Part shown: positions 877 through 54,743 of the stretch, one piece after another
How the letters are laid out: the number at the start of each line of letters is the position of its first letter
Position numbering within the stretch: the first letter of the stretch is position 1
NCBI GenBank assembly: GCA_030390025.1
Contig: CM059432.1
Location: 46,874,001-46,938,000, forward strand
DNA: 64,000 bases
Source of the DNA: Squalus acanthias
Lineage: Eukaryota
Direction: 5' to 3'
Translations under genes and position numbers: made by a program
The notes under the pieces: model-generated
Databases searched by the model: none
The model's input: the letters and a program-made list of their open reading frames with translations, nothing else
What the model was told of the DNA's origin: nothing

Positions 877-1917
877 CCTTGTGGAACACCACTACCCACC
901 TTCTACCACTGTGAATAGCTACCTTTTACCCCTACTCTCTGCTTTCTGTCTTGAAGCCAGTTAGCTATCCATTCTGCTATTTGTCCCCTAACTCCACATT
1001 CTCTGACCTTGTTCATTAGTCTATTATGGGGTACCTTATCGAAGGCCTTTTGAAAATCTAGATAAATGGCATCTACTGCATTACCATTGTCTACTCTCTG
1101 TTACCTCTTCAAAAAATTCAAGCAAGACTTTCCCTTTTGAAATCCATGCCGACTATTCATTACTATGTTTTTGGTTTCTAGATGTTCTTCTATTTTCTCA
1201 TTCGTAGAGATTCCATTATTTTTCCTACCACCAATGTTAAGCTGACTGGTCTATAATTCCCTGGACATGTTCTATCCCCCCTTCTTAAATATATGATGTG
1301 GAGATGCCGGTGTTGGACTGGGGTGGACAAATGTGAGAAGTCGCACAACACCAGGTTATAGTCCAACAGCTTTATTTAAAATCACAAGCTTTCGGAGCGC
1401 TGCTCCTTCATCAGGAGCAGCGCTCCGAAAGCTTGTGATTTCAAATAAAGCTGTTGGACTATAACCTGGTGTTATGCGACTTCTCACATTTCTTAAATAT
1501 AGGTATTACGTTAGCTATCCGCCAGGCCTCTGGCACTACACCTTTTTCTAACGAATTAGTAAATATGCGTAGTAATGCCTCTGCTATCTCTTCCCTAGAT
1601 TCTTTTAAAATGTGTGGATGCAATCCATCCGGACCGGGGTTTTATCGTCTTTGAGTTTGATTAGTTTATTTAATACATCCCCTCTTTTTATTTTAAATGC
1701 ACTTATCTCATTACTAATGTCATGATCTCATGTCATGTCCACCTGTTCTATCTCCTGGTAAATACTGAAGCAAAATAATTATTCAATATTCCTGCCATCT
1801 CTCTGTTGTTACCTGTGGTATTATCCTGTCTATCCCTTAATGGCCCTATTCTCATCCTAACCTTCCTTTTTTTATTGATGTGCCTGTAAAATATTTTACT
1901 ATTTTGTTTTATATTTT
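877..1917 (-). mobile_element. Degraded CR1 LINE ORF2 (RT region) fragment, interrupted at 1294-1489
   Basis: ORF 1748-1987 (KIFYRHINKKRK...LNNYFASVFT); minus-strand codons for FQKAFDKVPH near 1030-1050. Confidence 0.85.
1294..1489. mobile_element. Penelope-family (B) 3'-end fold-back insertion containing a hammerhead motif
   Basis: About 80-bp inverted arms around a tcatc loop; 12-bp TSD ttcttaaatata (1282-1293 and 1490-1501); same terminus as the GIY-YIG element at 32018-32800. Confidence 0.85.
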
Positions 1918-2232
1918 GATGGGTCCAGTATGAGCACATAGCTGCACCTTCAAGAGGGGGTCTTATACAAAACTGCATGTAAATCATGCCTCATTAACAA
2001 CTCTCTCGTCCGTATCGTATTTTTTTTAACTTTTGCTTGTCAGTGATCAGTTGAAGGCTTCCCCATTTTATTTCAGTGCTGAGGCAGTAGAACCAATGAT
2101 TTAAACATACAGAAGCAGGCTCTCATTATTGCATCACTTGAATTTATTTATGGACCACTTTTGAGGGTATAACTCTGCTAGCCATAATTTTTGATACATC
2201 TGGGAGCTCAAGGAGAGCAGAATGGGAGTCTT

Positions 2233-4482
2233 ACATAGAACATAGAACAGTACAGCACAGTACAGGCCCTTCAGCCCTCGATGTTGTGCCGAGCATTGTC
2301 CGAAACCAAGATCAAGCTATCCCACTCCCTATCATTCTGGTGTGCTCCATGTGCTTATCCAATAACCGCTTGAAAGTTCCTAAAGTGTCCGACTCCACTA
2401 TCACAGCAGGCAGTCCATTCCACACCCCAACTACTCTCTGAGTAAAGAATCTACCTCGGACATCCCTTCTATATCTCCCCCCATGCACCTTATAGTTATG
2501 CCCCCTTGTAACAGCTACATCCACCCGAGGAAATAGTCTCTGAACATCCACTCTATCTATCCCCCTCATCATCTTATAAATCTCTATTAAGTCGCCTCTC
2601 ATCCTCCTCCGCTCTAAAGAGAAAAGCCCTAGCTCCCTCAATCTTTCCTCATAAGACCTCCCCCCCAAACCAGGCAGCATCCTGGTAAATCTCCTTTGCA
2701 CTCTTTCCAATGCTTCCACGTCCTTCCTATAGTGAGGTGACCAGAACTGCACACAATATTCCAAATGTGGTCTCACCAAGGTCCTGTACAGTTGCAGCAT
2801 AACCTCACGGTTCTTAAACTCAAACCCCTTGTTAATAAACGCTAACACACTATAGGCCTTCTTTACTGCTCTATCCACTTGAGTGGCAACCTTCAGAGAT
2901 CTGTGGATATGAACCCCCAGATCCCTCTGTTCCTCCACGTTCCTCAGAACCCTGCAGTTGACCCTGTAATTCTTATTCAAATTTGCCCTTCCAAAATGAA
3001 TCACCTCACACTTATCAGGGTTAAATTCCATCTGCCATTTTTCGGCCCAGCTCTGCATCCTATCAATGTCTCTTTGCAGCCTACAACAGCCCTCCACCTC
3101 ATCCACTACTCCACCAATCTTGGTGTCATCAGCAAATTTACTGATCCACCCTTCAGTCCCCTCCTCCAAGTCATTGATAAAAATCACAAACAGCAGAGGA
3201 CCCAGCACCGACCCCTGTGGCACACCGCTGGTAACTGGTCTCCAGTCCGAAAATGTTCCATCCACCACCACCCTCTGCCTTCTATGAGATAGCCAGTTAC
3301 TTATCCAATCGGCCAAATTTCCCTCTATCCCACAACTCCTTACTTTCTTCATGAGCCGACCATGGGGAACCTTATCAAACGCCTTACTAAAATCCATGTA
3401 TACGACATCAACTGCTCTACCTTCATCTACACACTTAGTTACCTCCTCAAAGAATTCAATCAAATTTGTTAGGCAAGACTTACCCTTCACGAATCCGTGC
3501 TGACTATCCCGGATTAAGTTGCATCTTTCCAAATGGTCATAAATCCTATCCCTCAGGACCTTTTCCATTATCTTACCAACCACCGAAGTAAAACTACCCG
3601 GCCTATAATTACCAGGGTCATTCCTATTTCCTTTCTTGAAGAGAGGAACAACATTCGCCACTCTCCAGTCCTCTGGCACCATCCCCGTGGACAGTGAGGA
3701 CCCAAAGATCAAAGCCAGAGGCTCTGCAATCTCCTCCCTTGCCTCCCAAAGAATCCTAGGATATATCCCATCTGGCCCAGGGGACTTATCGACCCTCAGG
3801 TTCTTCAAAATTGCTAAAACATCTTCCCTCAGAACATCTACCTCCTCCAGCCTATCCACCTTTATCACACTCTCATCCTCAAGAACATGGCCCCTCTCCT
3901 CGGTGAACACTGACGAAAAGTATTCATTCATCACCTCTCCTATCTCTTCTGACTCCATGCACAAGTTCCCACTACTGTCCTTGACCGGCCCTACCCTCAC
4001 CCTGGTCATTCTTTTATTTCTCACATAAGAGCAAAAAGCCTTGGGGTTTTCCTTGATCCGACCCGCCAAGGACTTCTCATGCCCCCTCCTAGCTCTCCTA
4101 AGCTCTTTTTTTAGCTCATTCCTTGCTACCTTGTACCCCTCAATCGACCCAACTGAACCTTGTTCTCTCATCCTTACATACGCTTCCTTTTTCCTCTTGA
4201 CTAGACATTCAACCTCTTTTGTGAACCATGGTTCTCTCACTCGGCCATTTCCTCCCTGCCTGACAGGGACATACCTATCAAGGACACGCAGTAATTGCTC
4301 CATGAAAAAGCTCCACTTTTCGTTTGTGCCTTTCCCTGATAGTTTCTGTTCCCATCTTATGCTCCCTAATTCTTGCCTAATCGCATCATAATTACCCCTC
4401 CCCCAATTATAAACCCTGCCCTGCCGTATGGCCCTATCCCGCTCCATTGCAATAGTGAAAGTCACCGAATTGTGGTCACTAT
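2233..4482 (-). mobile_element. Young 5'-truncated CR1 LINE
   Basis: (catagaa)n tail at 2233-2250 and an uninterrupted RT ORF. Confidence 0.95.
2312..4482 (-). CDS. CR1 ORF2 reverse transcriptase, open frame, N-terminally truncated (lacks most of the APE endonuclease)
   Basis: Motifs KSPGPDG, DFSKAFDKVPH, GVPQGSVLGPLLF, SKFADD, RPHLEYC in the 729-aa ORF. Confidence 0.9.
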
Positions 4483-7220
4483 CTTGTCGGCCTATCCACA
4501 TATTGTGTCAGGAAACCCTCCTGCACACACTGTGCAAAAACTATCCCATCCGAACTTCTTTGGGATACCCCTATACATATATGCTGGGCCAGATTTTGCT
4601 GGAATGGAGCATCTCGCAGCATGCCCTGTTAGTTGGACTTGTTCGTGCACATTTAGGTTTTAAAATGTTTTGCCCACAAAGTTGCTGAAAGTGCGAGCTG
4701 ATAGCAGCACAGCGAGGGCAACATGGCATTGGGACCTTGGTGAACAACGGGACAAACAGTGTACCTCCTTAACCAATGAGATTTAAGGATTGAGAAATAA
4801 ACAGAGGAAGGACTGAGAAGAATGGTGAATTTAATGCCAAATCAGGCACAGAAAGAGAAATAAAGAAAGGGATAGAAAGATTGGATTAAGAAAGAGAACA
4901 AAGAGACAGAAAGGAAACGCAAGAAAAAAAATTAAAATTTGACATTTATAAAATCTCCTAAAACAATTCACAACCTGAAGAAATGAAACTCCACACTTAT
5001 AATTGTTCACTTTCTGGGCAAGAGGGATTGATTGGCATAGAGACAGAAAATGCTGGAAATACTCAGCAGTCAGGGAGCATCTGTGAAGAGTAAAACCGTT
5101 AACGTTTCAGGTCGAAGTCCTTTCGTCAGAACTGACAGAGGTTGGAGATGTAACAGGTTTTAAGTATGTAGAGGTGGAGGGAGGGAAGAGGAGGAAAGAA
5201 CAAAAATGAATGTCTGTGATAGGGTGGAAGGCAGGAGTGATTAAATGATGATGATGCAAGGCAAAATGAGGTGGTAATGGGACAAGTAAGGAAACAAAAG
5301 ATGGGTCTAGAAGAGCTGTAAATGGCAACACCGCACATGCTGCCCGAAAAAATGGGAGCAGTGGTTAGGATCTGAAATTGTTTAACGCAATGTCGAGTCC
5401 AGAAGGCTATAAAGTGCCTAATTAAAAAATGAAGTGCTGTTCCTCAAGCTTCCATTGAGCTTTATTAGAACAGTGTAGGAGGCCAAAGACAGAGAGGTCA
5501 AAGTGGGAGTGGGACGGAGAATTAAAATGGCAAGTGACCGTAAGGTCATGGTCAGGCTTGCAGACTGAACAGAGATGTTCAGCAAAGCGATCACCTAATC
5601 TGCGTTTGAACTCCCCAATGTAGAGGAGACCACATCATGAGCAGCGAATACAGTATACTAAATTGAAAGAAGTACAAGTAAATCGCTGTTTCACCGAGAA
5701 GGACGGTGGGAAGGAAGGAGGTGAAAGGGCAGGTGTTGCATCTCCTGCGCTTGCATGTGAAGGTGCCGTGGAAAGGGGAGAGGGTGTTGGGGGTGATACA
5801 AGAGTGGACCAGTGTGTCGCGGAGGGAACAGTCCCTTCGGAACGCTGAAGGGGGGGGGGGGGAGGGGAAGATGTGTTTGGTAGTGGCATCGCGCTGGAAG
5901 TGGCAGAAATGGTGGGGGATGATCCGTTGAATGTGCAGGCTGATGGGGTGGAAGGTGAGGACAAGAGGGACCCTATCATGATTCTGGGATCGAGAGCAAG
6001 GGGCGAAAGCAGAAGTGTGGGAAATGGGACAGACACGGTCAAGGGCCCTGTCAACCACGGTGGAGGAGAATTCTCGGTTGAGGAAAAAGAAAGACATATC
6101 GGTAGCACTGGTATGAAGGTGGCATCATCAGAACAAATGCAATGAAGACAGAGAAACTGGGAGAATGGAATAAAGTCCTTACAGGAAGCGGGGTTGGAGG
6201 AAGTGTAATCACTTAAGCTGTGGGAGTAGGTGAGCTTATAGTAGATGCTAGCGACAGCCTATCCCCAGAAATGGAGATAGAGAAGTCGAAGAAGGGAAGG
6301 GAAGAATCGGAGATGGACCATGCAAAGGCGAGGGAAGGGTGAAAATTGGAAGCAAAGTTGATGAAATTTTCCAGTTCGAGGCGAGAGCAGGAAGCGGCAC
6401 TAATACAGTCATTAATGTATCGGAAAAAGTGGTGAGGGAGGGGACCGTGTAGGGCTGGAACAAAGAATGTTCCACATATCCTACAAAAAGGCAGGCCTAG
6501 TTCGGACCCAAATGGGTTCCCATAGCAACACCTTTTATTTGGAGGAAGTGAGTGGAGTCAAAGGAAAAGTTGTTCAATGCAAGAACTAGTTCAGCCAGGC
6601 AGAGGAGGGTGGTGGGGGATGGGGGCTTGTTAGGCCTCAGTTCAAGGAAGAAGTGGAGGGACCACAGGCTGTCCTGGTGGGGGATGGAGGTGTAGAGGGA
6701 CTGGACCTCCACTGTGAAAAGGAGATGGTTAGGGGCAGGAAACTGGAAACTGTTAAAGTGTCGGAGGGCGTCGGAGGAGTCACGGATGTAGGTCAGAAGA
6801 GACTGGACAAGGGGAGAAAAAAATAGAGTTGAGATAGGAATAAGTTCCATGAGGCAAGAACAGGCTGAAATGATGGATCTTCTTGGGCAGTCCTGTTTGT
6901 GGATCTTTGGAAGGAGATAGAAGCGGGCTGTGTGGGGTTAGGGGACTATGAGGTTGGAGGCCGTTGGGTAAAATCTCAAGAGCAGATGAGGTCAGTGACG
7001 GTCTGGGAAATGATGGCTTCATGTTCGGTTGTGGGACATGGTCCACGGGGAGGTGTTGTTCAGCCTCCGCAAGGTAGAGGTCCGTTCGCCAAACAACAAC
7101 CGTGCCACCCTAGTCAGTAGGTTTAATGACAATGTCAGGGTTGGACCTGAGAGAACGGAGCGCTGCAAGTTCAGAGGGAGATAGGGTAGAGTGAGTGAGA
7201 CAAGTAGAGGAATTGAGAGC

Positions 7221-19900: not shown

Positions 19901-20543
19901 GGAATTACTTAGACATTACAACACAGAAACAGGCCGGTCAGCATAACCAATTCCATGTTGGTGTTTAACTTCTACACGAACTGTAGTCCAAGTTTCATGT
20001 ACCCCCTTTGTTCCCATATCTCTTTATCCTCCCCTTTCCGCCCATCAACTATCCAGCCTATTCTTAAATGTTGAGATGGTCTCTGCTTCAATCATTAACT
20101 TTGGTACTGCAATCCATAGCCCCACAAGTTTCTCCTGCTCTCTGTCCTAAATCTCTTACATTTAATATTATATCTATGTCCTTTCATTCTAAATGCCACT
20201 ATCACTGGAAAATATCACAGATCACCCTAATCTATGATCTGAAATGGTTGGTCACCTCTCACAAACCAACTTTACGTAGAAGTGGAGTCTTTTGCTTTTC
20301 GCCAGAGCTTTGAAGTAATGCCCTCTGTAACAACCGAGGGTCACCTCATAGCAGTTAACTTCTAATTACCCAATCCTGGTTAACCAGTTCATTCAAAAAG
20401 TATTTTTTCTCATGAGCAGAGCTCTGCAGCACACTAAGTTAGAACATTGTCCTTTCATCCCCAGGATTTAGGTTTGATCTGGGCTAAAGGGATGCACAGT
20501 TTATATGATTCCTGTTTGGACAGTCTCAATCCAACTTCTATTA

Positions 20544-37861: not shown

Positions 37862-38046
37862 TTCATGATTTGTTCTGTTTTTCTAATTGTCTGTCCTGAA
37901 TAAATGACACACAGAGTTTGTTAAAGAAAAAAGTTGTATTCAAAATGTACCTTTGCAATCATTCCAGCTTTGGCTGGCAATAGGGGGTGCAGGTTGCTTT
38001 CCATGATGTTGTTCTCCATGCCAGAAGCCATCTTCTAAGTAGGGGC

Positions 38047-39092: not shown

Positions 39093-40164
39093 GTTTGCCA
39101 CTCTCTCTCTGCGTCTCTGCTGCCTCCGATTCTGTAGGTGCAGGACGATGCCCCGAATCAGTGCAGCCCCCTAAGTCTCTTCTAAATCACTGCAATGAAG
39201 GTCAAATGAAAATGAACCTGCAAAGTGCTGCTCAGTACCCAAAACTCCTTCACACAGTGTTGAATCTCTCCAGAAGTCTCTCTCCCTCTCAGAATGCGTG
39301 GTACAAAAATGTCAGCGACAAAAAAAGGCAGGAAGCAGCCGCCTTTAAATAGCATTCCCCCAGCCCCTTCCCGACTGCAAAACGTTCCCCTCTACCTGTC
39401 GTTGCTAGGGGCAGGCAGAAAGGCAAGGGGCGCGACTCAATATCCGGTCCGGGGCGCTACACGCTCGACTGACGTCACGATCTGCGGGCGCAGGAGATCG
39501 TGGCGGTAGCGTTTAACGCCGCCGCAAAATGTCTGGTCAATTTTGCAAGCGGCGCAAACATCGCCGCGCACAGGCGCTAGTTGATTTGCGCTCCGTTAGC
39601 ACCCTCTTAGGGCGCTAATGGGAGGCACTAATCAACCGAATTTTTCCCCCCCTTGTCCCAGAGCAGCCACCCTCGAGTTTGCTGTGGTCGCTGGAAGATT
39701 GCTGATGCAGGATGAAGGCATCATGGCTGCTGCAAGGCTAGTGGGCATTGACCGTCAGGAAGTGCTAGGCGTGGTCGCACACCAACTGCACATTAAGTGA
39801 GTGGTAGCCTTTGCAGTTACGGAGAAATTGAGGGCACGGTGAACTTGACTGTCACTGGGAGAGCCGTGTTCACCCTGCTCTCAGGCTGCAGGTCTTGTTG
39901 CAGGGGGTGGCAGAGTTCTGTGTACCTCCTTGATGAAGCGTAGCCTCCTAATAAACTGCTCCTCGCTTAAACGGATATATGAGAAGTGCTCTCAGAAGAC
40001 CCTAGGTGGGTAAGGCCTCCTGTTGAGAGCCCTCCTCCTCCTCCTCCTCCCTCTGTGCGCATCTTCTCCCCTTCTTCGCGGCCTCCGCTCCCTCTCCTGA
40101 AGATAAGCGAGCACCAGTAGAGCCCCCATGACTGTGAGCAAGTGTTGTGAGCAGAAGCACAACA

Positions 40165-41457
40165 AAGTCACCATGGATTTATGAAAGGGAAATCGTGTTT
40201 AACAAACCTACTGGAGTTTTTTGAGGATGTAACTGGTAGAATAAATAAGGGAGAACCAGTGGATGTGATGTATTTGGATTTTCAGAAGGCCTTTGATAAA
40301 GTCCCACATAAGAGGTTAGTGTGCAAAATTAAAGCACATGGAAATTGAGGGTAATATACTGGCATGGATTGAAAATTGGTTAACAGACAGGAAACAGAGA
40401 GTAAAGAATAAATGGGTCTTTTTCAGGGTGGCAGGCGGTGACTAGTGGGGTACCGCAGGGATCAGTGCTTGGGCCCAGCTATTCACAATATATATCAATG
40501 ATTTGGATGAGGGAACCAAATGTAATATTTCCACGTTTGCTGACCACACGAAACTAGGTGGGATTGTGAGTTGTGAGGAGGATGCAAAGAGGCTTCAAGG
40601 TGATTTAGACAAGTTGAGTGAGTGAGCAAATACATGGCAGATGCAGTATAACGTGGATAAATGTGAAGTTATCCACTTCGGTAGGAAAAACAGAAAGGCA
40701 GAGTATTATTTAAATGGTGATAGATTGGGAAATGTTGATGTACAAAGGGACTTGGGTGTCCTTGTACACCAGTCACTGAAAGCAAACCTGCAGGTGCAGC
40801 AAGCAGTTAGGAAGGCAAATGGTATGTTGGCCTTCATTGCAAGAGGATTTGAGTACAGGAGCAAGGATGTCGTACTACAGTTATACAGGGCCTTGGTGAG
40901 ACCACACCTAGAGTACTGTGTGCAGTTTTGGTCTCCTTACCTAAGAAAGGATATACTTGCCATAGAGGGAGTGCAGCGAATGTTCACCAAACTGATTCCT
41001 GGAATGGCAGGACTGTCGTATGAGGAGAGATTGGGTCGACTCGGCCTGTATTCACTAGAGTTTAGAAGAATGAGAGGGGATCTCATTGAAACGTATAAAA
41101 TTCTGACAGGGCTAGACGGACTGGATACAGGGAGGATGTTTCCCCTGGCTGGGGAGGTCTAGAACGAGGGGTCACGGTCTCAGGATAAGGGGTAGGACAT
41201 TTAGGACTGAGATGAGGAGAAATTTCTTCACTCAGAGAGTGGTGAACCTGTGGAATGCTCTACCAGAGAAGGCTGTGGAGGCCAAGTCACTGAATATATT
41301 TAAGAAGGAGATAGATAGATTTCTAGACACAAAAGGCATCAAGGGGTATGGGGATAGAGAAGGAATATGGTATTGATAGAGGATCAGCCATGATCATATT
41401 GAATGGCGGAGCAGGGCCGAATGGCCTACTCCTGCTCCTATTTTTCTATGTTCTATG
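40165..41457 (+). mobile_element. 5'-truncated CR1 LINE
   Basis: HGFMKGKSCLTNLLEFF through the 3' tail ttctatgttctatg. Confidence 0.93.
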
Positions 41458-41723
41458 CTGGAAAATTATGGGGAGTATGCTTGTGGTTTCCTGAGATGTG
41501 CTCCTGGTGGGCAAGGCTCAAGCTCGGTGCATGCATTCATAAAGTTCACCCTTGAATTTCAAAATAAATTTAGGTAAACTATTCTAGAAAGGAATGGGAA
41601 TTGATGCCATCTGTTTTGTACTTGTGAAATGCAATCTTATTTTGACCTCAGCTAATGTAAAAACACTCCAAAATCCTTTTTAATGTCATTGAGCAGTGTC
41701 ATAAGGCTGTTTGCTGCCAGACA

Positions 41724-42204
41724 ATGGCCTAGAAAGTCAGGGGTTTAGCGCCAACCATTACCGCCAGATTAAGGCAAAAAAATGGCGGCCGCCATTCTTC
41801 TGTCAGTTGTTGGTGGGTCCTGTGGCGGGCGCCATTTTCGGTTGGGCGGCAGCGCTGCCGATATCAGCGATCGCTAATATCATGGAAATGATACAGATCA
41901 TGACATCAGTGAGTGTGCAACGCTCACTTGACAGCTGAACTGCGAGTTTGAAGTTCACCATTCAACTTACCGGCATGCCTTAAATGCAACGAGCTGAGCA
42001 AGCGTTGACTAGCAGGAAGGAAGCTCCAGCAGCGGTATTTAAAAGGATCATCAGCAACTACTTGCACCTGACATGTTTCTGCAGTTTGACTGGCTCTGTG
42101 CAACTTTCTGCAACTCCATTAGCTTTATTAACTTCTTACAAGGTTCTAAGGTAACAGGGAGTGTTGTTGCAAGTGGAGAATGCCTTCATTATTATTTAAA
42201 GGCT
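41724..42204. mobile_element. Probable terminal fragment of another Harbinger-type element, cut by a CR1
   Basis: Starts ggcctagaaagt; CpG-rich subterminal sequence similar in style to 32836 onward. Confidence 0.4.
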
Positions 42205-45200
42205 TAGAAACATAGAAAAATAGGAGCAGGAGTCGGCCATTCGGCCCTTCGAGCCTGCTCCGCCATTCAATATGATCATGGCTGATCCTCTATCTCAATA
42301 CCATATTCCCGCTCTCTCCCCAAACCCCTTGATGCCTTTTGTGTCTAGAAATCTATCTATCTCCTTCTTAAATATATTCAGTGACTTGGCCTCCACAGCC
42401 TTCTCTGGTAGAGAATTCCACAGGTTCACCACTCTCTGAGTGAAGAAATTTCTCCTCATCTCAGTCCTAAATGTCCTACCCCTTATCCTGAGACTGTGAC
42501 CCCTCATTCTAGACCTCCCCAGCCAGGGGAAACATCCTCCCTGCATCCAGTCCGTCTAGCCCTGTCAGAATTTTACACGTTTCAATGAGATCCCCTCTCA
42601 TTCTTCTAAACTCTAGTGAATACAGGCCTAGTCGACCCAATCTCTCCTCATACGACAGTCCTGCCATCCCAGGAATCAGTCTGGTGAACCTTCGCTGCAC
42701 TCCCTCTATGGCAAATATATCCTTTCTTGGGTAAGGAGACCAAAACTGCACACAATACTCCAGGTGTGGTCTCACTAAGGCCCTGTATAACTGTAGTAAG
42801 ACATCCTTGCTCCTGTACTCAAATCCTCTTGCAATGAAGGCCAACATACCATTTGCCTTCCTAACTGCTTGCTGCACCTGCATGTTTGCTTTCAGTGACT
42901 GGTGTACAAGGACACCCAGGTCCCTCTGGTCATCACATTTCCCAATCTATGACCATGTAAATAATACTCTGCCTTTCTGTTTTTCCTACCGAAGTGGATA
43001 ACTTCACATTTATCCACGTTATACTGCATCTGCCATGTATTTGCCCACTCACTCAACTTGTTTAAATCGCCTTGAAGCCTCTTTGCATCCTCCTCACAAC
43101 ACACAATCCCACCTAGTTTTGTGTCATCAGCAAACTTGGAAATATTACATTTGGTTCCCTCATCCAAATCATTGATATATATTGTGAATAGCTGGGGCTT
43201 AAGCACTGATCCCTGCGGTAGCCCACTAATTACCATCTGCCACCCCGAAAAAGACCCATTTATTCCTACTCTCTGTTTTCTGTCTGTTAACCAATTTTCA
43301 ATCCATGCCAGTATATTACCCCCAATCCCATGTGCTTTAATTTTGCACACTAACCTCTTATGTGGGACCTTATCAAAGGCCTTCTGAAAATCCAAATACA
43401 CCACATCCACTGGTTCTCCCTTATCTATTCTACCAGTTACATCCTCAAAAAACTCCAGTAGGTTTGTCAAACATGATTTCCCTTTTATAAATCCATGTTG
43501 ACTTTGTCTAATCCCGTTGATATTTTCTAAGTGTCCTGTTATCACATCCTTTATAATAGACTCTAGCATTTTCCCTACTACTGATGTTAGGCTAACCGGT
43601 CTATAGTTCCCTGTTTTCTCTCGCCCTCCTATTTTAAAAAGTGGGGTTACATTTGCCACCCTCCAATCTGCAGGAACTGTTCCATAATCTATAGAATTTT
43701 GGAAGATGACAACCAATGCATCCACTATTTCCATGGCTACCTCTTTTAGTACTCTGGGATGCAGATTATCAGGCCCTGGGGATTTATCGGCTTTCAGTCC
43801 CATTAATTTCTCCAGCACTATTTTTTTACGAATACTAATTTCCTTTGATTCCTCCTCCTCACTAGACCCTTGGTTCCCTAGCATTTCTGGGAAGTTATTT
43901 GTGTCCTCTTAAGTGAAGACAGAACCAAAGTATTTGTTTAATTGCTCTGCCATTTCCTTGTTCCACATTATAAATTCTCCCGTTTCTGACTGTAAGGGAC
44001 CTACATTTGTCTTCACTAATCTTTTTCTTTTTACATACTTATAAATGCAATTTGTTGTTGGAGCTTAAATTGAGTGTCAAAGGGCAAACTAACTCCAAAG
44101 CAAAGAGGCATGACAGCAACTCCAGATTCTCATTCCACCTTACTGCAGTTTTAGATGGGCCTTTGACTCCAGACTCAAAACTACCATGACACTATACTAC
44201 ACTGCCCGTGCAAGATGAAACAGCAGTGTCGATTCAAGGTGAACGTGCGATGCACTAACACTACTGTTAATCCTCAAAGAACAGTTTTGTTGAAATGGGA
44301 ATCAAGGAAAAACTGAATTTCTGCGTAACATAATTGGCAAACAGCAAGTCCTAAATAACAAAGTGACTGTAAGGGACATACATTTGTCTTCACTAATCTT
44401 TTTCTTTTTACATACTTGTAGAAGCTTTTACAATCAGCTTTTATGTTCCTTGCAAGTTTACTCTCATACTCTATTTTTCCCCTCTTAATCAATCTCTTGG
44501 TCCTTTTTTGCTGAACTCTAAACTGCTCCCAATCCTCAGGCTTGCTACTTTTTCTGGCAACTTTATATGACTCCTCTTTGGATCTAATACTATCCTTAAT
44601 TTCTTTTGTTAGCCATGGTTGAGCCGCTTTTCCTTTTGTGTTTTTGCGCCAGCAAGGAATGTATAACTGTTGCAATTCATGCATTCGTTCCTTAAATGTT
44701 AGCCATTGCCTATCCACCGTCATGCCTTTTAATGAAGCTCCCCAATCTATCATAGCCAACTCACTCCTCATACCTTCGTAGTTTCCTTTGTTTAGATTTA
44801 GGACCCTAGTTTCGGATTGGACTTCTTCACTTTCCGTCTTAATGAAGAATTCTATCATGTTATGGTCACTCTTCCCTAAAGGACCCCGCACAACAAGATT
44901 ATTAATTAACCCCTTCTCATTGCACAATACCCAATCTAAGATAGCCTGTTCCCTAGTTGGCTCCTCAACGTACTGGTCTAAAAAACCATCTCGTACACAC
45001 TCCAGGAATTCATCCTCCACAGTATTATTGCTAATTTGGTTTGGCCAGTCTATATGTAGATATAATTCACCCATGATTACTGTAGTACCCTCGTTACATG
45101 CATCTCTAATTTCCTGTTTGATGCCATCCCCTACATTACCACTACTGTTTGGAGGCCTATAGACAACTCCCACCAATGTTTTCTGCCCCTTGGTGCTTCT

Positions 45201-45510
45201 TAGCTCCACCCAGACTGATTCTACATCTTTATTTTCTGAGCCAATATCCTTTCTCACTATTGCTCTGATTTCATCCTTTACTAGCAATGCCACCCCACCT
45301 CCTTTTCCTTTTTGCCTGTCCTTCCTAAATATCGAATATGCTTGGATATTCAGCTCCCAGCCTTGGTCATCCTGCAGCCCTGTCTCTGTAATCGCAATTA
45401 TATCGTATCGTTTACATCTATTTGCGCTGTTAATTCGTCTACCTTATTACGAATGCTTCATGCATTCAGATACAGTGCCTTTAGATTTGTCTTTTTAACA
45501 TTTTTAGACA
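42205..45510 (-). mobile_element. CR1 LINE with nearly complete ORF2 (APE + RT), interrupted at 44041-44363
   Basis: ORFs 44274-45293, 42892-43884 and 42509-42883; tail tagaaacatagaaa. Confidence 0.95.
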
Positions 45511-46414
45511 TCTTAAAAAAATTTGTACTATGGCCAGGAGCATGCATTCAACCCTTCAGTGTAAAATCTCAATAGACTGATTTATTGGTAGTTAGTTGCA
45601 GTCTCTGAGGAGACAGCTTTACCTCAGCTTTAAACCCCAGTAACAATATTGTCACTGAATGAAACTGCCATCTATAGACCATTTCAGCTTCACATTCCTC
45701 AGTAAATCACAATCTCCATCCTTTTTCAGCTTCACATGGAAACTTCCTACAAGACCATAGCATTCAGCAGGATATGTTCCTTCCTTGACATGATTTGAGG
45801 TGATCCACATAAATTATATCACATCTAGGCTGTGATTGCTTTTGTACCACTTAACCACTTCAAAAACAGATGCAGCTCACCTCATGATTATTGAAAGTTA
45901 CAGAAAACGTCTCAATAGTTGTACAACCATACTTCTCGTTTGTCTTTGACTATGGACCATACCATAATTCTTTTCTGTGTTTAATCATTTTAAGTGGGCT
46001 TGATCATACTGTCCTATTGCTCCTTCAGTCATCAGGTACACTCACAACCCTCTACAATCCTCCACTTGAAAAAAGTCAATCATCTTCCACAGCTCAGTTA
46101 CAATGTTTTAGCTATGATACTTGATTGAGGTCTTCCCAACCCTAAGCACACTACACATTTCCAAGAAGACAGCGCCCTCAAGGTTCTTTCCTTATTCACT
46201 GTGTAGATGCTGAATCTACAAAGTGGAATATACTATATATTTTCAAGGCTCTGGGCCTAATTTTATTCTCCATCAGAAGACTATCAGCCAGAAAATATTA
46301 TGACTGGTGATTCCATCAACAGCATAGGATATACCAGTCACAGCAGCCACATCAATTTAGTTAGCTCTGAAAGGGTTTCCTCCTATCTTCTTGCCTTAGC
46401 AGAACCTGTTCTAC

Positions 46415-46722
46415 TCTGAAATAAAAACAGAAAATGCTGGAAATACTCAGCAGGTCAGGCAGCATCTGTGGAGAGAGAAACAGAGTTAACGTTTCAGGTC
46501 GATGAACCTTCGTCAGAACTGGAAAAAGTTGGAGATGTAACAGGTTTTTAAGCAACTGGTTTTTAAACCTGTTACATCTCCAACTTTTTCCAGTTCTGAC
46601 GAAGGGTCATCGACCTGAAACGTTAACTCTGTTTCTCTCTCCACGGATGCTGCCTGACCTGCTGAGTATTTCCAGCATTTTCTGTTTTTATTTCAGATTT
46701 CCAGCATCCGCAGTATTTTGCT
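46415..46722. mobile_element. Penelope family A fold-back insertion with a hammerhead motif in each arm
   Basis: About 135-bp inverted arms; TSD cctgt(t/a)ctactctg (46405-46418 and 46723-46736). Confidence 0.9.
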
Positions 46723-47615
46723 CCTGTACTACTCTGCTTGGGTTTCAATTTCATTTCACTAACACAGGCCAAATACCTACCATAAATTTGCCTGACTCCC
46801 ACTGGTCACCAGACAGACTGCTTTTGTCTAGTAGTCCCATTCATTATACTCATCCCAAGATCTTATTCCACCATAGACAGCTGGGCTAATGCATGGTTTA
46901 ACAGAGTTGACACTCGCTGGTGTAGAGTGTTGCTTTATCACACTATATTGAGTTACACAGTTTTAGCAGTTGTATTTCTTCTCCCAGCTCCTGTGGATTC
47001 TGTTTCAGTTTAATTGTTTATTTGAAGGCTGTCAATTTTCAGTCCTTCTATTGTTATCTATAGGTTGTTTTTCAAAACAGTTACATTGTGACTTTGGTTT
47101 TTCCACAAGTACTCCACGTATGCATACATGGCTTTAATATATATTACATAAAGCATTTCTGAGCATTAAAAAGTGGTATAAGATTTGTGATGTCTGGTAG
47201 CCTGGAAATTTTGAACATGATTTTGACGCCTGTTCCAAGCTCATACCAGCATCAAAACAGCCCCTGAAGGTTTGATGTTTCATGGCCACGCAGTGGTTGA
47301 AGTGCCAACTTTGCACTCAATCATTATAAAAGCAGAATTCATTCCAGAACAAACGTGACAGTATAAACAGGGTGACAGTAGCATAAACTGTGCTAGAATA
47401 AGAACTCTGGTTCCATACTGACATAAATTGAAACTTGGCTTATTAAAGGTGGATTTGATGCCAGCTTGATTCAGTAAAGCTTAGTGTAAAGTTGAGACTA
47501 AAGTATGGTCCACTGAGGTTTGCATATGTCAGATATTACCTTATTACTGCCTATTTATATAACACTTTCATTTCAGAGGCTTAATTTCACTCAGTGATAA
47601 ATCTAAGACATGGGA

Positions 47616-48220
47616 AGCAACAAAAACTTACATTTATATAGCGCCTTTAACATAGTAAAACATCCCAAGGTGCTTCACAGGAGTGTTATCAAACACAATT
47701 TGACACCAAGCCACATAAGGAGATATTAGGACAGGTGACCAAATGCTTGGACAAAAAGGTAGGTTTAAAGGATCATCTTAAAGGAGAGAGAAATAGAGAG
47801 GCAGAGAGGTTTAGGGAGGGAATTCCAGAGTTTAGGGCCTAGGCAGCTGAAGCCACGTCCACCAATGGTGGAGTGATTAAAATCGGGGATGCGCAAGAGG
47901 CCAGAATTGGAGGAGCGCAGAAGACTCAAAGGGTTGTTGGGCTGGAGGGGTTACAGAGATAGGGAGGCGCGAGGCCATGAAGGGATTTGAAAACTAGGAT
48001 GACTAGGTTTAAAATTGAGGCATCGTTGGACCAGGAGCCAATGTAGGTCAGTGAGCCCAGGAGTGATGGGTGAATGGGACTCAGTGCGAGTTAGAACACG
48101 GGCAGCGGAGTTTTGGATGAGCTCAAGTTTATGGAGGGTGGAAAATGGGAGGCTGGCCAAGAGAGCATTGGAATAGTCAAGTCTAGAGATAACAAAGGCA
48201 TGGATGAGGGTTTCAGCAGC
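47616..48220 (-). mobile_element. L2 LINE 3' fragment
   Basis: AETLIHAFVISRLDYSNALL...IQNSAARVL. Confidence 0.88.
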
Positions 48221-48599
48221 ACTAGCATGTTGTTCTGGGACACTATAATCCTGACATGAATAGATCAATTCAGACTGTGAGTGCCCTGATGGCTCAAATG
48301 GTTCAGTATTCTATCCCTAACCAGAAAGCTATGAGTTCAAGTGCTAGAGTTGTTCATCACAAAAACGCATCTTACTTGGATTGTTTAATTGTTTTTAGCC
48401 AGGCTATCAGTGTTTCATAGAAGCTTGATCTTATATCTTTTTTGGGAGGGGGCAGTAATTGACTTATTTAAATCATACTTCAGTTTCACTGGCAACAGCA
48501 GCTTTCAGAGTCATTGCTGATAACTCTTATTCTTGCCTGAAAAGGCTGTAAGCAGTTCGTAAAACAGAATCAAATCAGTTCTATTATTTTGAGTGGTAC

Positions 48600-48672
48600 C
48601 TGTTCTGTAAACCACTGATGTTGCATAACTTCTGCAAATTATGATAATCAATTCCCAAAAAATACTGCATTC
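48600..48672 (-). CDS. Host gene exon 2: (G)MQYFLGIDYHNLQKLCNISGLQN(R)
   Basis: Acceptor tttttgtttctttcctgctag, donor AG|gtacca, 73 bp; phase 1 in and phase 2 out fit both neighbours. Confidence 0.78.
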
Positions 48673-48889
48673 CTAGCAGGAAAGAAACAAAAAATTAGAA
48701 TTTGTTTTCAAACATCTTGTACAATTATTGTCCTGGTAAAATAACTTGCATGTCATTTATCTCTAGGTATGTCTATATTAAAAAGAAAAGACCCATTTTT
48801 GAACTATTAAGTGTAAATGCATTTTAAACAGGGATGCAGCAGCAACTGCACACATTTACCCAGTGAGCAATTAAAGTCAGATTTTCAGT

Positions 48890-49340
48890 TCAACAACAAC
48901 AACTTGTATTTATATAGCACCTTTAACGTAGTAAAACGTCCAAAGGCACTTCACAGGAGTATTATAAGACAAAAAATTTGACAACGAGCCACATAAGGAG
49001 AAATTAGGGCAGGTGACCAAAAGCTTGGTCAAAGAGGTAGGTTTTTAGGAGCATCTTAAAGGAGGAAAGAGAGGTAGAGAGGCAGAGAGGTTTAGGCAGG
49101 GAATTCCAGAGCTTAGGGCCTAGGCAACAGAAGGCACGGTCACCAATGGTTGAGAGATTATAATCAGGGATGCTCAAGAGGGCAGAATTAGAGGAGTGCA
49201 GATATCTCTGGGGGTTGTGGGGCTCAAGGAGATAGGGAGGGGCGAGGCCATGGAGGGATTTAAAACAAGGATGAGAATTTTGAAATCGAGGCATTGCTTA
49301 ACCGGGAGCCAATGTAGGTCAGCGAGCACAGGAGTGATGG
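48890..49340 (-). mobile_element. L2 LINE 3' fragment
   Basis: FKSLHGLAPPYL...GPKLWNSLP..LKTYLF; (caa)n tail. Confidence 0.88.
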
Positions 49341-49929
49341 TTTCACTGAATCCTACCTTGCTTCTGGGAGTTAGTAAAGCAATTCATCAGAGATTTCATT
49401 AGTAATCACTAAACATGGGTATAAGGCCTATGAATCCTAGAAAATATTGAACAGTAACACCAATAGCAAATCTGCTTAGAAAACCTTGTCAAAAAAACAA
49501 GAAACCCAGTTCACAAGCAGGAGGTGCATGAGACCCTGGACAGGAGTAGATCAATATTTGGCATTAAAATTAAGCTGCTTTATGCGTATTCCAAAGGATG
49601 AGGGAGGGCTGTGAGCGGGTTGCTTGGCAACTGAACACAATCTCTTAAAAAAAATAGAAGAATGAGATGCGGATGGGTTTTAATGGCCATCGATGAAAAC
49701 ATTGTGTATAAATGCCTAAGTGGGAGAGAAACTACAGGAGGAGCACAGGAACTGAAGAAGCTTAACCAGTGTGGAAGAAAAGTGGCAGAAATATTAGTGC
49801 AGAAAGCTTATAGGGCTAGGAGATCTTGAGGTAGGATATTGAGTCTGGTAATTTTCTTCAATATGTGTGTGTTATTGTATATCCAAATTATAATCTGTAG
49901 AAATATTATAAAAATATTACAATTTTCCT

Positions 49930-51480
49930 TTATATAACATCTTTAATGTAGAAAAACATCTTAATGTGCTTCAAAGAGGAACAAAGCAGTGGCTGCCAAG
50001 CCTTTATGAGGGTCTTGAGATGACCAAATGCTTGGTCAAAGAGATGGGATTTATAGAAGTTTTTAGAGGCAACCACAGAAATAGAGGGGCAGAGTGATAT
50101 TGGGGAGGAATGCCAGAGAGTACGGCTATACCACCAATGTGGTGGAGCAGAGCGAGGGGAATGCACATCCCAGAGTTAAGGAATCAGAGACCATGGAAGG
50201 CAACATATTGGACTCTAGGGGAATCGAGGGATATGGGGATCGGGCGGGAAAGTGGAGTTGCAGTCGAAGATCAGCCATGATCTTATTGAATAGTGGAGCA
50301 GGCTCGAAGGGCCGTATGGCCTACTCCTGCTCCTAATTCTTATGTTGCAGTTAGGGTAGGGTGATGATGGAGGAATCTGTAGTTAAGCATGAGGATTTTA
50401 AATTTCATACATCAGTGGACAGAAAGATATTCTACGTAGGCAAGGACAGATGTGATGAGAAATCAGGACTTAGTATGGGTGGGTGAGTTTTGAGCAAGTT
50501 GGAGTTTGTAGGTCAGACGTCTGCCATTCAGGCTGCTAGAGAAATTGAGTCTAGAGGTAATGAAAATGTGGATAACTGTTTTGGCAGGTGAGGTATGGAT
50601 GGAGGCAGGAAATGCTGTGAAGGTTTAAGTAAACAGTCTTGGCAATGGATAGGATGTTGTTTTAGAAGTTCATCTCTGTGTCAAGCAGGATGCTGAGTTT
50701 GAAAACAATCATCCATAACAAGCAATGGAGAGGGGGACAGATTCAGTGGCAAGGAAACTGAGTTTTTGCTGGGATCCAGAAATGACGTGTATCACCTTCC
50801 ACCTGGAGATTCTCATTCATTTGCAAGTTAATGTCACACAGGCAGTTTGACAACACAGAATGATGGAATTGTTGGAAAGATAAAAGCTGGGTGAAATCAG
50901 TATACATTTGGAAGCTAATTTGTTCCAAGAGACAATGTCACCAAAGCAAAGCACATACATCAGAAGGAGGAGTGGCCAAGGATAAATCCTTGGGGTTTTC
51001 CAGAAGCCATCATGTGGGTGCGTGAAAAGAAGTCATTGTTGGAGATGTGCTAAATGCATTGGGATAGAAGTGGAACCAGGAAAGGGTAGTCCCATGGAGC
51101 TGGCCCATGGAGGAGAGGCAGTGGAGGAGGGCAACAGCGAGTTTGAGAAGGACATGGAGTTGCAATCAGAGAGGATATCATTCATGACTTTGACTAGAGA
51201 AGACTCAGCAGTGATCAAGGAAAAAGGTAGACTGAAGGGATACGAAGAGAGTTGTGGGAAATTTGGGCATGGACCTGGAAGGCAATGATGCGTTCAAGAA
51301 CTTGGATAAAAAGGGACGTTAGATAAGGGGGGGTAGTTAGACAGGTAAGGGTGGGGTTTTGGCAGAGGGGCTAGGGTGGTAAAAATTATGATGGTGGCAG
51401 TGGAACAGGGTTTGAGGAGACAGTTTGTCATGGAGAAAAAAGTCATGGGTTCTCCTAGATGATCCTGGAGTAGTAGAAAA
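49930..51480 (-). mobile_element. Highly degraded L2 LINE, with a small CR1 3' UTR piece (+) at about 50207-50347
   Basis: KSHLFDQAF and AESSLVKVMNDIL remnants. Confidence 0.65.
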
Positions 51481-51699
51481 TACAATGTTCATCCTACCAA
51501 AAAGATCTTTGCCATCCAAAATGATATTTTTCACTTGGCAGTTCAATATTAAAGTTACAACATTCCAATAATATGATCAAAAGAATGAATCCCCAGGAAA
51601 CCATATTACTATAAATATATTTACTGGAATGTGAAAGCCTCATTGAGTAATTTGGCACGATTAAAAACAATTTTCAGAGGAGACAGTTCCAGGAACCAA

Positions 51700-52415
51700 A
51701 GCTTCCCAAAAACACAATGGGTCATTATTAATGTGAAATCAGTCGGCAAGTTCGGGTGATTAACAGATACACCATGAGTTGCGAATCTCCAGAACCTGCT
51801 GGTCAATTTACGCTACTCCACCGTTTGCTTTGCACAAATGGCATCTCGCCCTTAGCCTCCCCGTTATTTTTAAGAACCTACTGGATTTGCACATTAATTG
51901 TCCATTGAACTCACCATAGAAAGTTAGGGCTGGAACTTAACAGCACAAGCACCTTTTTAACAATGTGATAATTGTTAATGCAATACCAATCAACCTCTCT
52001 GGCACAGAAAGGGAACAATTTAAACTGTTCAATCTCATTTCTGCATGTCGCAAATTGTTGTTAGAAATTTTTTAAATGTCAAATTTTAATCTTTTACATT
52101 TTTTCTTACTTTTCCTTTCTGTCTCTTTTTCTTTCCCTCTCTTTCTGTACCTGATTTATCTCAAATTCACCCACTCTAATTCATCCTCCTTCTCTGTCAT
52201 TCCTCTGTTTCTTTCTCAATCCTTAAATCTCATTGGTTAAATTGATACACTGTTGGTCATATCGTTCACCAAGGTCCCAGATGCCCCGTTGCCCTTGCCA
52301 CGCCATTATAAGCTCGCACTTCCAGCAAGTTACTGCGCAAAAAAAATTTGAGCTGAAGGGTGCAGGAAAAAGTCTAACTAACGGCGTACGCTGCAAGATG
52401 CCCGGCTCCAGCGAG
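51700..52415. mobile_element. Second, reverse-oriented copy of the MITE split at 4586-19229
   Basis: Reverse-complement similarity, e.g. tcaatccttaaatctcattggttaa versus ttaaccaatgagatttaaggattga at about 4770-4793. Confidence 0.75.
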
Positions 52416-52419
52416 ATGA

Positions 52420-52685
52420 GGGAGTGCTGTACTGTCTGAGTTGCTGCCTTTTGGATGAGATGCTAATATGAGGCCCCATCTGCCTTCTCAGGTGGACATA
52501 AAAGATCCTCTGGCACTACCAACATCACTAAACAAAAACAGATTATGTGGTCATTTATCTCATCGCTGTGCACAAACTGGCTGCTGCATTTCCCTACATT
52601 ACAACAGTGACTATACCTCAATATCACATCATTGTAAAGTATTTGGGAGCATGTGAAAGGTGCTATATGATTGCAAGTTATTTCT
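52420..52685 (+). mobile_element. DeuSINE-type SINE fragment
   Basis: Deu core plus L2-like tail. Confidence 0.7.
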
Positions 52686-53489
52686 TCCTTCATCATAGAA
52701 TTAGCCAACCGTAGGACTTTTTAAATGTAGCAATAACATTTAAAAGGCAGTTGCTATAATCAAATCATAACTCTGGGGCCTGATTCAGTTTTTAATTAAC
52801 TTCAACAGTTGACACACTGTAACGTTAAAGGTGTGCTCACATATGTATAGCAGTTACTTATTTCTAAATGTGAAATTTACAACACATCTGGAAGCTCGGG
52901 TGCAGAGCTTGTATTATGGTTTAACAGTTGAATTTTAATAAGATAAAGTCAATGGTGATCATAAAGAAAAAGAACCTCTCAAATATTGACTTTAAAATTG
53001 AGCACTGAGGAATTCGATAAAAATATTGTACTTGGGTAATAACATCAGACGGCTGGACTAATGAAGAGATTAAATGGGTGATAGTAATTGCAAAAGAGGT
53101 GTTTCTTAAAAAAATGAATAGTAAGCAAAATGTTTACATGCTACTTGTAGTCAAAAGCAGCGTCCAAATGCGACAATTGGACTGGGAGTTTGAGTTTAGT
53201 GATATAACAGATGCAAAATCTTAGTTGAAGGTGATGACTAATTAGATGGCCTTTTGAATTAGCGCAAGGAGGGAAGGTGGATTAACCTGATGAGAATAAT
53301 TACATATCATAGAATCATACAGCACAGAAGGAGGCCAATTGGCCCATCACGCCTGTGCTGGCTTTTTGAAAGAGCTATCCAAATTAGTTCCATTCCTCTC
53401 ATCTTTTCCCATAGCACTGCAATTTTTCCCCTTCAAGTACACTGTGGTCATATTATTCAGAGGTCACCAGAAAAATCATCACTTTCTGG

Positions 53490-53860
53490 AGTTGTCACTT
53501 GAGCACAAAAATCTACGCTAACACTCCAGTGCAGTACTGAGGGAGTGCTTCACTGTCAGAGGTGCCGTCTTTCAGATGAGATGTTAAACCGAGGCCCTGT
53601 CTGCTCCCTCAGGTGGACTTAAAAGATCCCATGCCACTATTTCAAAGAAGAGCTGAAGGATTTATCCCTCAATCAACATCACTAAAAACAGATTATCTGG
53701 TCATTATCACATTGCTGTTTGTGGGAGCTTGCTGTGCGCATATTGGCTGCCACGTTTCCCACATTACAATTGTGACTACACTTCAAAAAGTCCTTGGTTG
53801 GCTGTAAAGCGCTATGGGACGTCCTGAGGTCGTGAAAGGTGCTATATGAATGCAAGTCTT
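53490..53860 (+). mobile_element. DeuSINE-type SINE
   Basis: cagtgcagtactgagggagtg...ggtgccgtctttcagatgagatgttaaaccgaggcc; tail gtgctatatgaatgcaagt. Confidence 0.8.
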
Positions 53861-53899
53861 TCCAATTTGTTTTGAAAAGTTGATCCTAACAGAGTAGGA

Positions 53900-54260
53900 G
53901 GAAGGCGAACAGCAGAGCCGCAGGACACTGACAGCACCTGGTTCGGGTGAGAGAGCCGGGAGTGTTCGGCTGCCCCCGGATAAACATTATCTCCACCTCT
54001 GACTGACCCATTACTGATTGCAGCCATTCATATTCTTGCTCTTACCCTGAGTCAGACGCGGCCGGCTCTCGTTACTCGCTGCCGGTGCGCCAACCGACAT
54101 TTTGCTTCCCTACGAGCTTCAGCCGGCCACAGCTGCGGTCGCCAGGCTCGGCGTCTGTCTCCATGGGAACCACACTCTGCCGGGGCACGTGACGCGTCCA
54201 ATTCTGGCTTCTGTGTGTAACAGGGCGGGAGAACGGGCATGCGTGCCAGCCTATGCGTGA
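53900..54260. promoter_or_regulatory. CpG-island promoter with RFX X-box (54157-54170), E-box CACGTGAC (54186-54193), CCAAT (54198-54202) and an NRF1-like GCATGCG
   Basis: The only non-repeat CpG-dense segment I found. GTCTCCATGGGAAC fits the palindromic RFX site and lies about 57 bp upstream of the ATG. Confidence 0.75.
54046..54100 (-). CDS. Host gene exon 1 coding part: MSVGAPAASNESRPRLTQ(G)
   Basis: ATG with A at -3 (gcaaaATG), strong donor AGG|gtaaga, phase 1 matching exon 2; lies inside the CpG island. Confidence 0.72.
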
Positions 54261-54384
54261 ATAGTAACTCATTTAAATATAATGTGGATATAATTTCTAC
54301 CTCAATCCCCAGAAAATGGGATGGAGTAACAAAATTGGACTAGCTGCGCTGCAAAAACAATGTCATTTGACATCCAATTCAACA

Positions 54385-54743
54385 ATTTCAGACCATAGCC
54401 TCTGCCCCTATTTTTTCAGATGGCACCTGTTGATGATTCTGCCGTTCCCATTTACACCCCTTCTAGACTCATCTTTTGTTTCTTTACCTGTCCCATTACC
54501 ATCTCCTTTTGCTTTGTACTATCATTTAATCACTCCTGCCTTCCAGCCTATCACAGACCTTCCCTTTTGTTCTTTCCTCCCCTTCTCCCCTTTGCCACCC
54601 ATGCACTTGCTTAAAATTTGTTACATCTCTAACTTTTTCCAGTTCTGATGAAAGGTCATTGACCTGAAATGTTAACTCTGTTTCTCTCTTCACAGATGCT
54701 GCCTGACCTGCTGAGTATTTCCAGCATTTTCTGTTTTTATTTC
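54385..54743 (+). mobile_element. Penelope family A 3' region with hammerhead motif
   Basis: agttCTGATGAaaggtcattgacctGAAAtgttaact at 54641-54677. Confidence 0.82.

Follow-up and report, generated by a model that had tools for sequence, protein, structure and literature searches.

Scattered over the 64,000-nucleotide stretch of the Squalus acanthias genome analysed here (the window) are short motifs that resemble self-cleaving RNAs, which raises the question of what these motifs are and what they do for the elements and the host gene around them. An earlier note had listed 11 minimal type I hammerhead motifs in this window. A motif was present at all 11 places, but only three copies are clean, those at 22844, 46592 and 32675; six pass a strict descriptor, and the core is mutated in three. 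In 159 evenly spaced 10-kb stretches of the genome (1.59 Mb), the same descriptor found 52 matches, against 1, 0 and 2 in Markov sequence and none in reversed sequence. Exact intact motifs number 37,873 for family A and 62,927 for family B across the whole genome, with no control matches for either. Since these counts lie far above the controls, the motif is not a product of chance. An Rfam scan returned no hammerhead family among its 15 matches at E ≤ 10. The catalytic core, CUGANGA and GAAA with U16.1 and H17, is present in the descriptor matches, the genome-wide exact patterns and the family alignments.

Two peculiarities described previously were borne out by these alignments. An extra A lies between positions 9 and 10.1 in 92 of 98 family A copies and in all 51 of family B, and a palindromic 15.2-16.2 pair replaces helix III, being CG in 88/98 (A) and GC in 49/51 (B). 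G10.1-C11.1, a pair that is strongly though not universally conserved among published minimal hammerheads, is found in 50 of the 51 family B copies and is replaced throughout family A, where A-U (48/98) and G-U (45/98) alternate, an alternation that is real at the family level. The motif is of a known kind: U17, the additional A and the palindrome in helix III all agree with the published minimal hammerhead (Cervera 2014). The likeness to those hammerheads (PMC4209133) extends to the CUGANGA/GAAA type I core, the one extra base before stem II, a helix I of 3-5 bp, the palindromic 15.2-16.2, U17 or C17, the location in pLTRs, and the prevalence of single truncated copies with some opposite-strand pairs. 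We considered U17 and A10.1-U11.1 as novelties and rejected both, as both occur in the rows of Figure S3 in that paper, A10.1-U11.1 in some of them, alongside CG and GC versions of helix III. The shark motifs differ from the published ones in their 5-bp stem II, in the lack of G10.1-C11.1 in family A, and in their number, at least 100,800 exact motifs compared with about 4,000 in coelacanth and about 9,000 in Xenopus. Table S1 and Figure S3 of PMC4209133 include no cartilaginous fish.

The assignment to two Penelope-like families was confirmed by a full copy consisting of a pLTR, an 892-aa ORF and a second pLTR, with the motif in both repeats; in the elements L012 and L023, the two direct repeats that flank the coding sequence each contain the motif. 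The 892-aa product contains RVT_1 above the cut-off, DKG and YIDD motifs, and a C-terminal VVYLIRC...WYIGET. It gave no Pfam GIY-YIG match itself; its closest proteins are shark reverse transcriptase (RT) proteins, and more distant relatives carry GIY-YIG (PF01541). The single ORF thus encodes an RT followed by a GIY-YIG endonuclease, as in EN+ Penelope-like elements. The pLTRs, inverted 5'-truncated partner, one-sided tail and target-site duplication are all present, compared with the EN+ insertion features given in the accessible parts of PMC8557442 and PMC3846280. Proteins of families A and B are only 30% identical, and both contain a Neptune-type CX2-5CxxC linker between RT and endonuclease, a linker also reported for Nematis in the accessible part of PMC8557442. 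The start codon lies about 90 nt (B) or 140 nt (A) 3' of the predicted cut. Judged from sequence, the window motifs are minimal hammerheads of type I that belong to the pLTRs of two very abundant Penelope-like families, mostly in decayed insertions.

The individual loci illustrate this decay. Family B is represented first by a head-to-head palindromic insertion at 1292..1491 with an approximately 11-bp target-site duplication, in which the motif at 1418-1382 (−) has lost the helix I 5' strand at the inversion junction and a partial inverted partner relic, absent from the earlier list, occupies about 1413-1491 (+). An inverted pair at 20543..21580 (434-bp arms, 98.8% alike; target-site duplication of about 11 bp) holds an endonuclease tail at 20996-21145 (−) and motifs at 20669-20632 (−) and 21495-21532 (+), both with the core defect U4>C. 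The short copy at 30777..30898 (+) begins at helix I, and its motif (30777-30814) has changes in stem II and in helix III, where the palindrome is broken. A young 3' end at 32007..32801 (+) retains a GIY-YIG endonuclease frame (32007-32432), a pLTR with a TATA-like box, an AATAAA-type signal and a tail, together with the clean motif at 32675-32712, predicted to cut after 32708. In family A, a remnant at 5037..6937 (−) has decayed RT, thumb and endonuclease frames (5488-6937) followed by a pLTR whose motif (5133-5097) has a stem II mismatch. A 100-bp insertion at 22844..22943 (+) begins exactly at helix I base 1, is flanked by a 9-bp target-site duplication and carries a clean motif at 22844-22880, for which cleavage is predicted after 22876; an old, diverged family A-like pLTR relic at 22573-22687 (−), missed earlier, has a mutated GAAA. 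The pLTR piece at 25730..25942 (−) bears the core defect A9>U in its motif (25827-25791). The head-to-head palindrome at 46415..46722 (283 bp, 95% alike; target-site duplication of about 13 bp) contains one motif with a stem II mismatch, 46520-46484 (−), and a clean one, 46592-46628 (+), predicted to cut after 46624. The last piece, 54378..54751 (+), includes a motif with a broken helix III palindrome (54641-54677). The window copies are all single or in inverted pairs, with no head-to-tail tandem units.

The last piece lies about 280 nt upstream of the start codon of CNBD1 and is oriented away from it. A homologue search identified CNBD1 as the minus-strand host gene and placed its first four coding exons at about 54100-54044, 48673-48599, 27915-27805 and 22022-21861 (span 21861..54100), with later exons beyond the window start; Pfam searches of 74 of the 243 candidate frames and a PDB search gave no match to the host gene. 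It had been proposed that copies on the minus strand could fold within the host pre-mRNA, and cleavage of that RNA was weighed here; five of the listed copies are indeed sense within CNBD1 introns. All five, however, are poor ribozyme candidates, either because of mutations or because long hairpins are predicted to trap them: the copies at 25790, 20632, 1382, 5096 and 46483 carry the defects given above, and those at 46483, 20632 and 1382 are predicted to pair fully with their inverted arms, with a modelled stem II pairing probability of 0.000. Additionally, sense copies of the same family lie 19-21 kb apart, and all three clean copies are antisense to CNBD1. The proposal is therefore unsupported and, in our estimate, very improbable, and the window copies are likely without effect on CNBD1.

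The earlier claim of covariation in family A stem II did not hold. Genome-wide, single variants number 347 and 249 against 20,804 unmutated motifs, and the seven double variants do not significantly exceed the 4.15 expected (P = 0.13), so the two-sided change is neutral decay, judging by these counts; with dead copies in the thousands, chance can produce a lone "compensatory" pair. Apparent covariation in the alignments is confined to one family B helix I pair and to the differences between the families, where replacement is complete. This pair (pair 3; n = 51) is U-A in 26 copies, C-G in 22, U-G in 2 and other in 1, corresponding to a single compensatory event in the tree. In the copies whose upstream sequence is genuine (65/98 A and 38/51 B), fixed core positions vary by 0-11%, compared with up to 62% just upstream, and N7 varies by 26% (A) and 61% (B); between subfamilies, too, the core is conserved and N7, N17 and loop II are variable. 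Conservation is roughly as high 3' of the motif as in the core and so cannot by itself be attributed to catalysis.

It could be asked whether the motif has lost cleavage and been retained for another role, either in DNA as an element close to the promoter or in RNA as a fold that binds protein. The family A monomer is predicted to adopt a rod-like fold, with the CUGANGA core base-paired to the helix III/cleavage strand and modelled helix I probabilities of only 0.00-0.21. The replacement of G10.1-C11.1 in family A, the predominance of U17 (41/52 descriptor matches), the retention of the uncut motif in copies, and the finding that hammerhead mutants had no effect on insertion in vitro (PMC11167929) point the same way. 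Against this, two families with proteins only 30% identical both retain the catalytic pattern exactly, leaving N7 free and N17 to alternate between U and C; cleavage and C3-G8 rescue have moreover been observed for the anole homologue (PMC11167929). We consider a purely non-catalytic role quite unlikely and retain the reading of the motif as a putative ribozyme.

The ends of truncated copies suggest where this ribozyme lies in the transcript. Between -46 and -27 from the cut (20 positions) fall 30 of 93 family A and 11 of 25 family B 5' ends, compared with 7/93 and 0/25 within 3 nt of the cut, counts that include inverted partners as non-independent cases and, perhaps, some "truncations" that reflect failed alignment. 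A TATA-like box precedes an initiator-like A by 27-33 nt in 15/23 (A) and 22/22 (B) upstream sequences, which represent few lineages, and the pattern occurs in 3/248 and 11/280 control windows; both the bin and the pattern were chosen after inspection of the data. Since ends accumulate at the start of helix I, about 30 nt after a TATA-like box, and not at the cut, the RNA templates are likely uncleaved transcripts that begin at the ribozyme. The same pile-up could arise from cleaved templates, or from stalling or template switching of the RT at the ribozyme structure. Ends are also scattered through the motif (about 58/93 in family A between -45 and +16), many being fold-back junctions, but the mode at -33/-34 lies beyond the structure, at the initiator-like A. 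Furthermore, truncated-copy ends and exact tails genome-wide showed no cleavage footprint at the family A cut: only 111 of 36,516 exact tails begin cleanly there, 21 of the first 100 have a flank of the kind that fold-back through helix I would leave, and of 12 loci picked by hand only 5 resemble plain junctions. Control offsets for this comparison were spoiled at +4 by CT slippage (704 matches) and at -4 by secondary transposon insertions (540), leaving no clean per-position null. An origin of the ends in cleavage or stalling appears unlikely, and a start at the ribozyme is preferred. A spliceosomal intron over the ribozyme was also considered, prompted by pyrimidine-rich stretches ending in AG downstream (A and B) and a GT at the B cut. 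It was dropped, as the first family A AG is GG in nearly half of copies and no GT..AG joint was seen in contigs of related organisms (for each family three putative-RNA runs and one of unspecified kind), from which absence is unprovable.

Together with the identity of the pLTR motif, we therefore hold it to be quite probable from the genomic record that in active elements the hammerhead forms the extreme 5' terminus of the transcript and would cut weakly, only as dimers or with the element protein. The TATA/initiator promoter would start the RNA 4-13 nt before CUGA, and the RT would prime about 75-110 nt after the cut site, read through the uncut ribozyme and run off the RNA 5' end, giving 100-150-bp stubs and fold-back palindromes. 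Cleavage, predicted after GUU or CUU, would take off the cap together with the leading 33-45 nt or, alternatively, cut tandem read-through RNA to unit length, and would likely be a slow side or regulatory step not required for copying. The view that a palindromic stem III works through dimers agrees with the literature model, min-HHRs having no monomer and low dimer activity (PMC4209133); the anole element has protein-assisted cleavage, uncleaved RNA as its main template and internal priming (PMC11167929). The layout is not universal, as the D. virilis Penelope has its hammerhead more than 100 nt from the transcription start (PMC4209133) and, according to the accessible part of PMC2377424, a TATA-less internal promoter. 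More tentatively, and with somewhat less than even confidence, we suggest that transcripts driven by the TATA/initiator could have the shark Neptune-type hammerhead as their first 35-45 nt, and that the tens of thousands of stubs could be run-off copies of this uncut 5' end. The ribozyme might then be a self-decapping switch sorting RNA between translation and other fates, not a template-making step, and the genome would record each subfamily's transcription start.

With anole PAc/Poseidon_Ac (Frangieh et al. 2024, PMC11167929), the shark elements share a pLTR hammerhead, a tail toward the ORF start, AT-rich targets and insertions apparently from uncleaved RNA; they differ in their Neptune-type linker and in the ORF, which in PAc begins inside stem II. 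Non-LTR retrozymes (PMC7229834; bioRxiv 10.64898/2026.07.22.740005) also carry hammerheads of type I, in very many copies (126,247 in axolotl); these are dimer-dependent in vertebrates and related to Penelope pLTRs. However, retrozymes form short arrays in tandem and classically contain canonical hammerheads, whereas the window copies are dispersed and joined to PLE coding remnants. Within the accessible literature, with subscription journals and Repbase outside the search, we found no paper on shark Penelope hammerheads or placing transcription start at a hammerhead, and the purpose of Penelope hammerheads is still open according to the accessible parts of PMC8557442 and PMC4209133. The present data extend them to a cartilaginous fish, in numbers over tenfold above those published for minimal hammerheads, in a genome that offers a young family, an intact ORF and a testable prediction, namely that the RNA begins at helix I and is copied uncut.

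The minimal type I hammerhead motif was present at all 11 positions named in the earlier note, as judged by a hammerhead-core scan and direct inspection of the window, and two additional relics were found at ~1413-1491(+) and 22573-22687(-). Hammerhead positions are numbered in agreement with published figure legends. Three copies are clean, all on the plus strand (22844, 46592 and 32675); the remaining ones carry a core change (25790, 20632 and 21495), lack one strand of helix I (1382), contain a stem II mismatch (5096 and 46483) or have a broken helix III palindrome (54641 and 30777). A strict descriptor, comprising the core, a stem II of at least 4 bp, a minimal helix III and a helix I of at least 3 bp, was satisfied by 6 of the 11. 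The same descriptor gave 52 matches in 159 evenly spaced 10-kb genome stretches; Markov controls yielded 1, 0 and 2 matches, and reversed sequence yielded 0. Exact intact-motif patterns occurred genome-wide at least 37,873 times for family A and at least 62,927 times for family B, with 0 in controls. This copy number, together with a testable clue to the start site, carries the interest of the finding; the note had correctly caught a known feature, but its covariation was overstated and its host effect is unsupported.

Decayed reverse transcriptase (RT)/endonuclease frames precede the motifs of both Penelope-like families in the window. Genome searches with these frames returned ~53,000 and ~58,000 candidate places, and among the 150 scored for each, family B matches were 96-99% identical and family A matches were 72-80% identical to the decayed window copy; the family B copies are young. 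Sixteen long-frame loci were retrieved. At L012 the pLTR-ORF-pLTR unit is complete, encodes an 892-aa protein and has the motif in both terminal repeats (pLTRs); the family A locus L023 has the same layout, and the majority of the rest are truncated at the 5' end and accompanied by an inverted partner. The CX2-5CxxC linker is given as a Neptune criterion in the available text of PMC8557442. Because the proteins of both families carry this linker along with DKG and YIDD motifs, and share 30% identity with each other, their sequences point to two Neptune-type families. The closest named proteins are shark proteins, and target-site duplications of ~9-13 bp were read by eye at the window insertions. 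At another locus, L014 (G000 C20), a single large inverted insertion holds two 790-aa family B frames in head-to-head orientation.

Each sequence feature that defines the published minimal hammerhead (min-HHR) of metazoan Penelope-like elements (Cervera and De la Pena 2014) is found here, save G10.1-C11.1 in family A. The published rows seen in the PMC4209133 supplement already include A-U at 10.1-11.1, as well as U17 and both helix III types, and no cartilaginous fish is among the species listed there. No publication on Penelope hammerheads in sharks came up in our literature search, and the supplements of a 2026 retrozyme preprint may list shark families.

Between families A and B, helix I, helix III and most stem II pairs are replaced while the core is unchanged. 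The first stem II pair of family A is A-U in 48/98 and G-U in 45/98 copies, and the third in family B is A-U in 34/51 and G-U in 17/51; loop II of family B spans 3-9 nt, all four bases occur at N7, and position 17 is U or C. One helix I pair of family B is compensatory (U-A 26, C-G 22, U-G 2, other 1; n=51), corresponding to one change on a tree of flanking sequence. Since the loci pool random and selected ones and the copies are related, these counts describe subfamily masters, not independent events. Variation at the family level does respect the fold. The only two-sided example offered, in stem II of family A, is at chance level. Genome-wide, the unmutated form was counted 20,804 times, the single variants 347 and 249 times, and the double variant 7 times against 4.15 under independence (P=0.13); this two-sided change is neutral decay.

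In ViennaRNA predictions, family A monomers fold into a rod that pairs their core with the cleavage strand, and their helix I has a probability of 0.00-0.21. Helix I is retained in 3/5 family B copies (0.55-0.99), and the best predicted dimer pairs through the helix III palindrome for 32675 only. Dimer cleavage is reportedly the subject of a paper by Lunse et al. The catalytic core lies outside ViennaRNA's model, and these predictions indicate only that refolding would be needed. Such a predicted need accords with the low in vitro activity of min-HHR described in sections of PMC4209133, and with the protein-assisted cleavage of an anole element in the accessible part of PMC11167929. In a family A subfamily with C17, every copy seen has U7, preserving a wobble in the predicted inactive rod; this association may be simple linkage.

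To map 5' ends, copies were gathered by downstream sequence only from the 159 stretches and 30 pattern loci (115 A, 38 B), and the alignment references with genuine upstream sequence numbered 31 and 35. Among copies ending within 290 nt, 30/93 in family A and 11/25 in family B start at -46 to -27 from the predicted cut after position 17 (binomial versus uniform, 3e-13 and 3e-7, for a bin picked after data inspection). Family A starts have their mode at -33/-34, where helix I begins, and window copy 22844 exemplifies such a start, with a target-site duplication. Starts within 3 nt of the predicted cut number 7 in family A and 0 in family B. Across the genome, the four bases immediately before the cut are non-matching in 111 exact A tails, versus 36,516 exact tails, under a filter that by our estimate a random flank passes ~1 time in 4. 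By our count, 21 of the first 100 of these 111 carry the flank that fold-back through helix I would produce, and 5/12 hand-picked loci with A tails starting at the cut look like plain junctions.

A TATA-like box 27-33 nt before an initiator-like A, itself 4 nt (family A) or 7-13 nt (family B) before CUGA, is present in 15/23 A and 22/22 B upstream sequences, against 3/248 and 11/280 control windows, respectively. A putative TATA box and initiator in a pLTR have been described for Adineta (available text of PMC3846280), and Penelope of D. virilis is described as TATA-less in passages of PMC2377424. We infer that transcripts would start at the ribozyme and remain uncleaved, the stubs being their run-off copies; no paper placing a start site at the hammerhead was found in our literature search. 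As RNA evidence, contigs of related organisms contain the neighbourhoods of both motifs with no splice joint across either, and are uninformative on starts and cleavage. In family B copies, for example at 32713-32725, an AATAAA signal ~10 nt after the predicted cut is invariant in 38/38; in the 3' repeat it could terminate transcripts directly behind the ribozyme.

A unique frame in the window matches shark CNBD1, and homology places four coding exons on the minus strand at ~54100-54044, 48673-48599, 27915-27805 and 22022-21861; the next exon was not found within 20 kb past the window start. Five of the 11 copies lie sense within CNBD1 introns, with same-family sense copies spaced 19-21 kb apart. 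The suggestion that minus-strand copies could fold in host pre-mRNA finds no support at this gene: all five are damaged, and three are inverted-repeat arms with a stem II probability of 0.000 in context. A possible divergent promoter lies at 54378-54751, where a family A pLTR that includes a TATA-like box is oriented away from CNBD1, ~280 nt upstream of its start codon.

Repeats match 76% of the window plus flanks. Several LINE copies of CR1-like type, at 2312-4507, 8109-10154, 11508-13980 and 42509-45443, contain long RT frames (RVT_1). Remains of a Harbinger-type DNA transposon lie at 35171-38852, with DDE_Tnp_4 frames on the minus strand and a Myb/SANT frame on the plus strand. At four loci on G000 C1 (L242, L245, L246 and L247), family A motifs are interrupted by non-coding elements that measure 750-880 bp and have terminal inverted repeats; their ends and duplication size make them putatively Harbinger-like. 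These inserts hit exactly the helix III/cleavage triplet with a 3-bp duplication, both halves being found in 4/8 loci. Junctions of this kind number up to 540 genome-wide, and the ribozyme site of one transposon thus appears to be a target for another.
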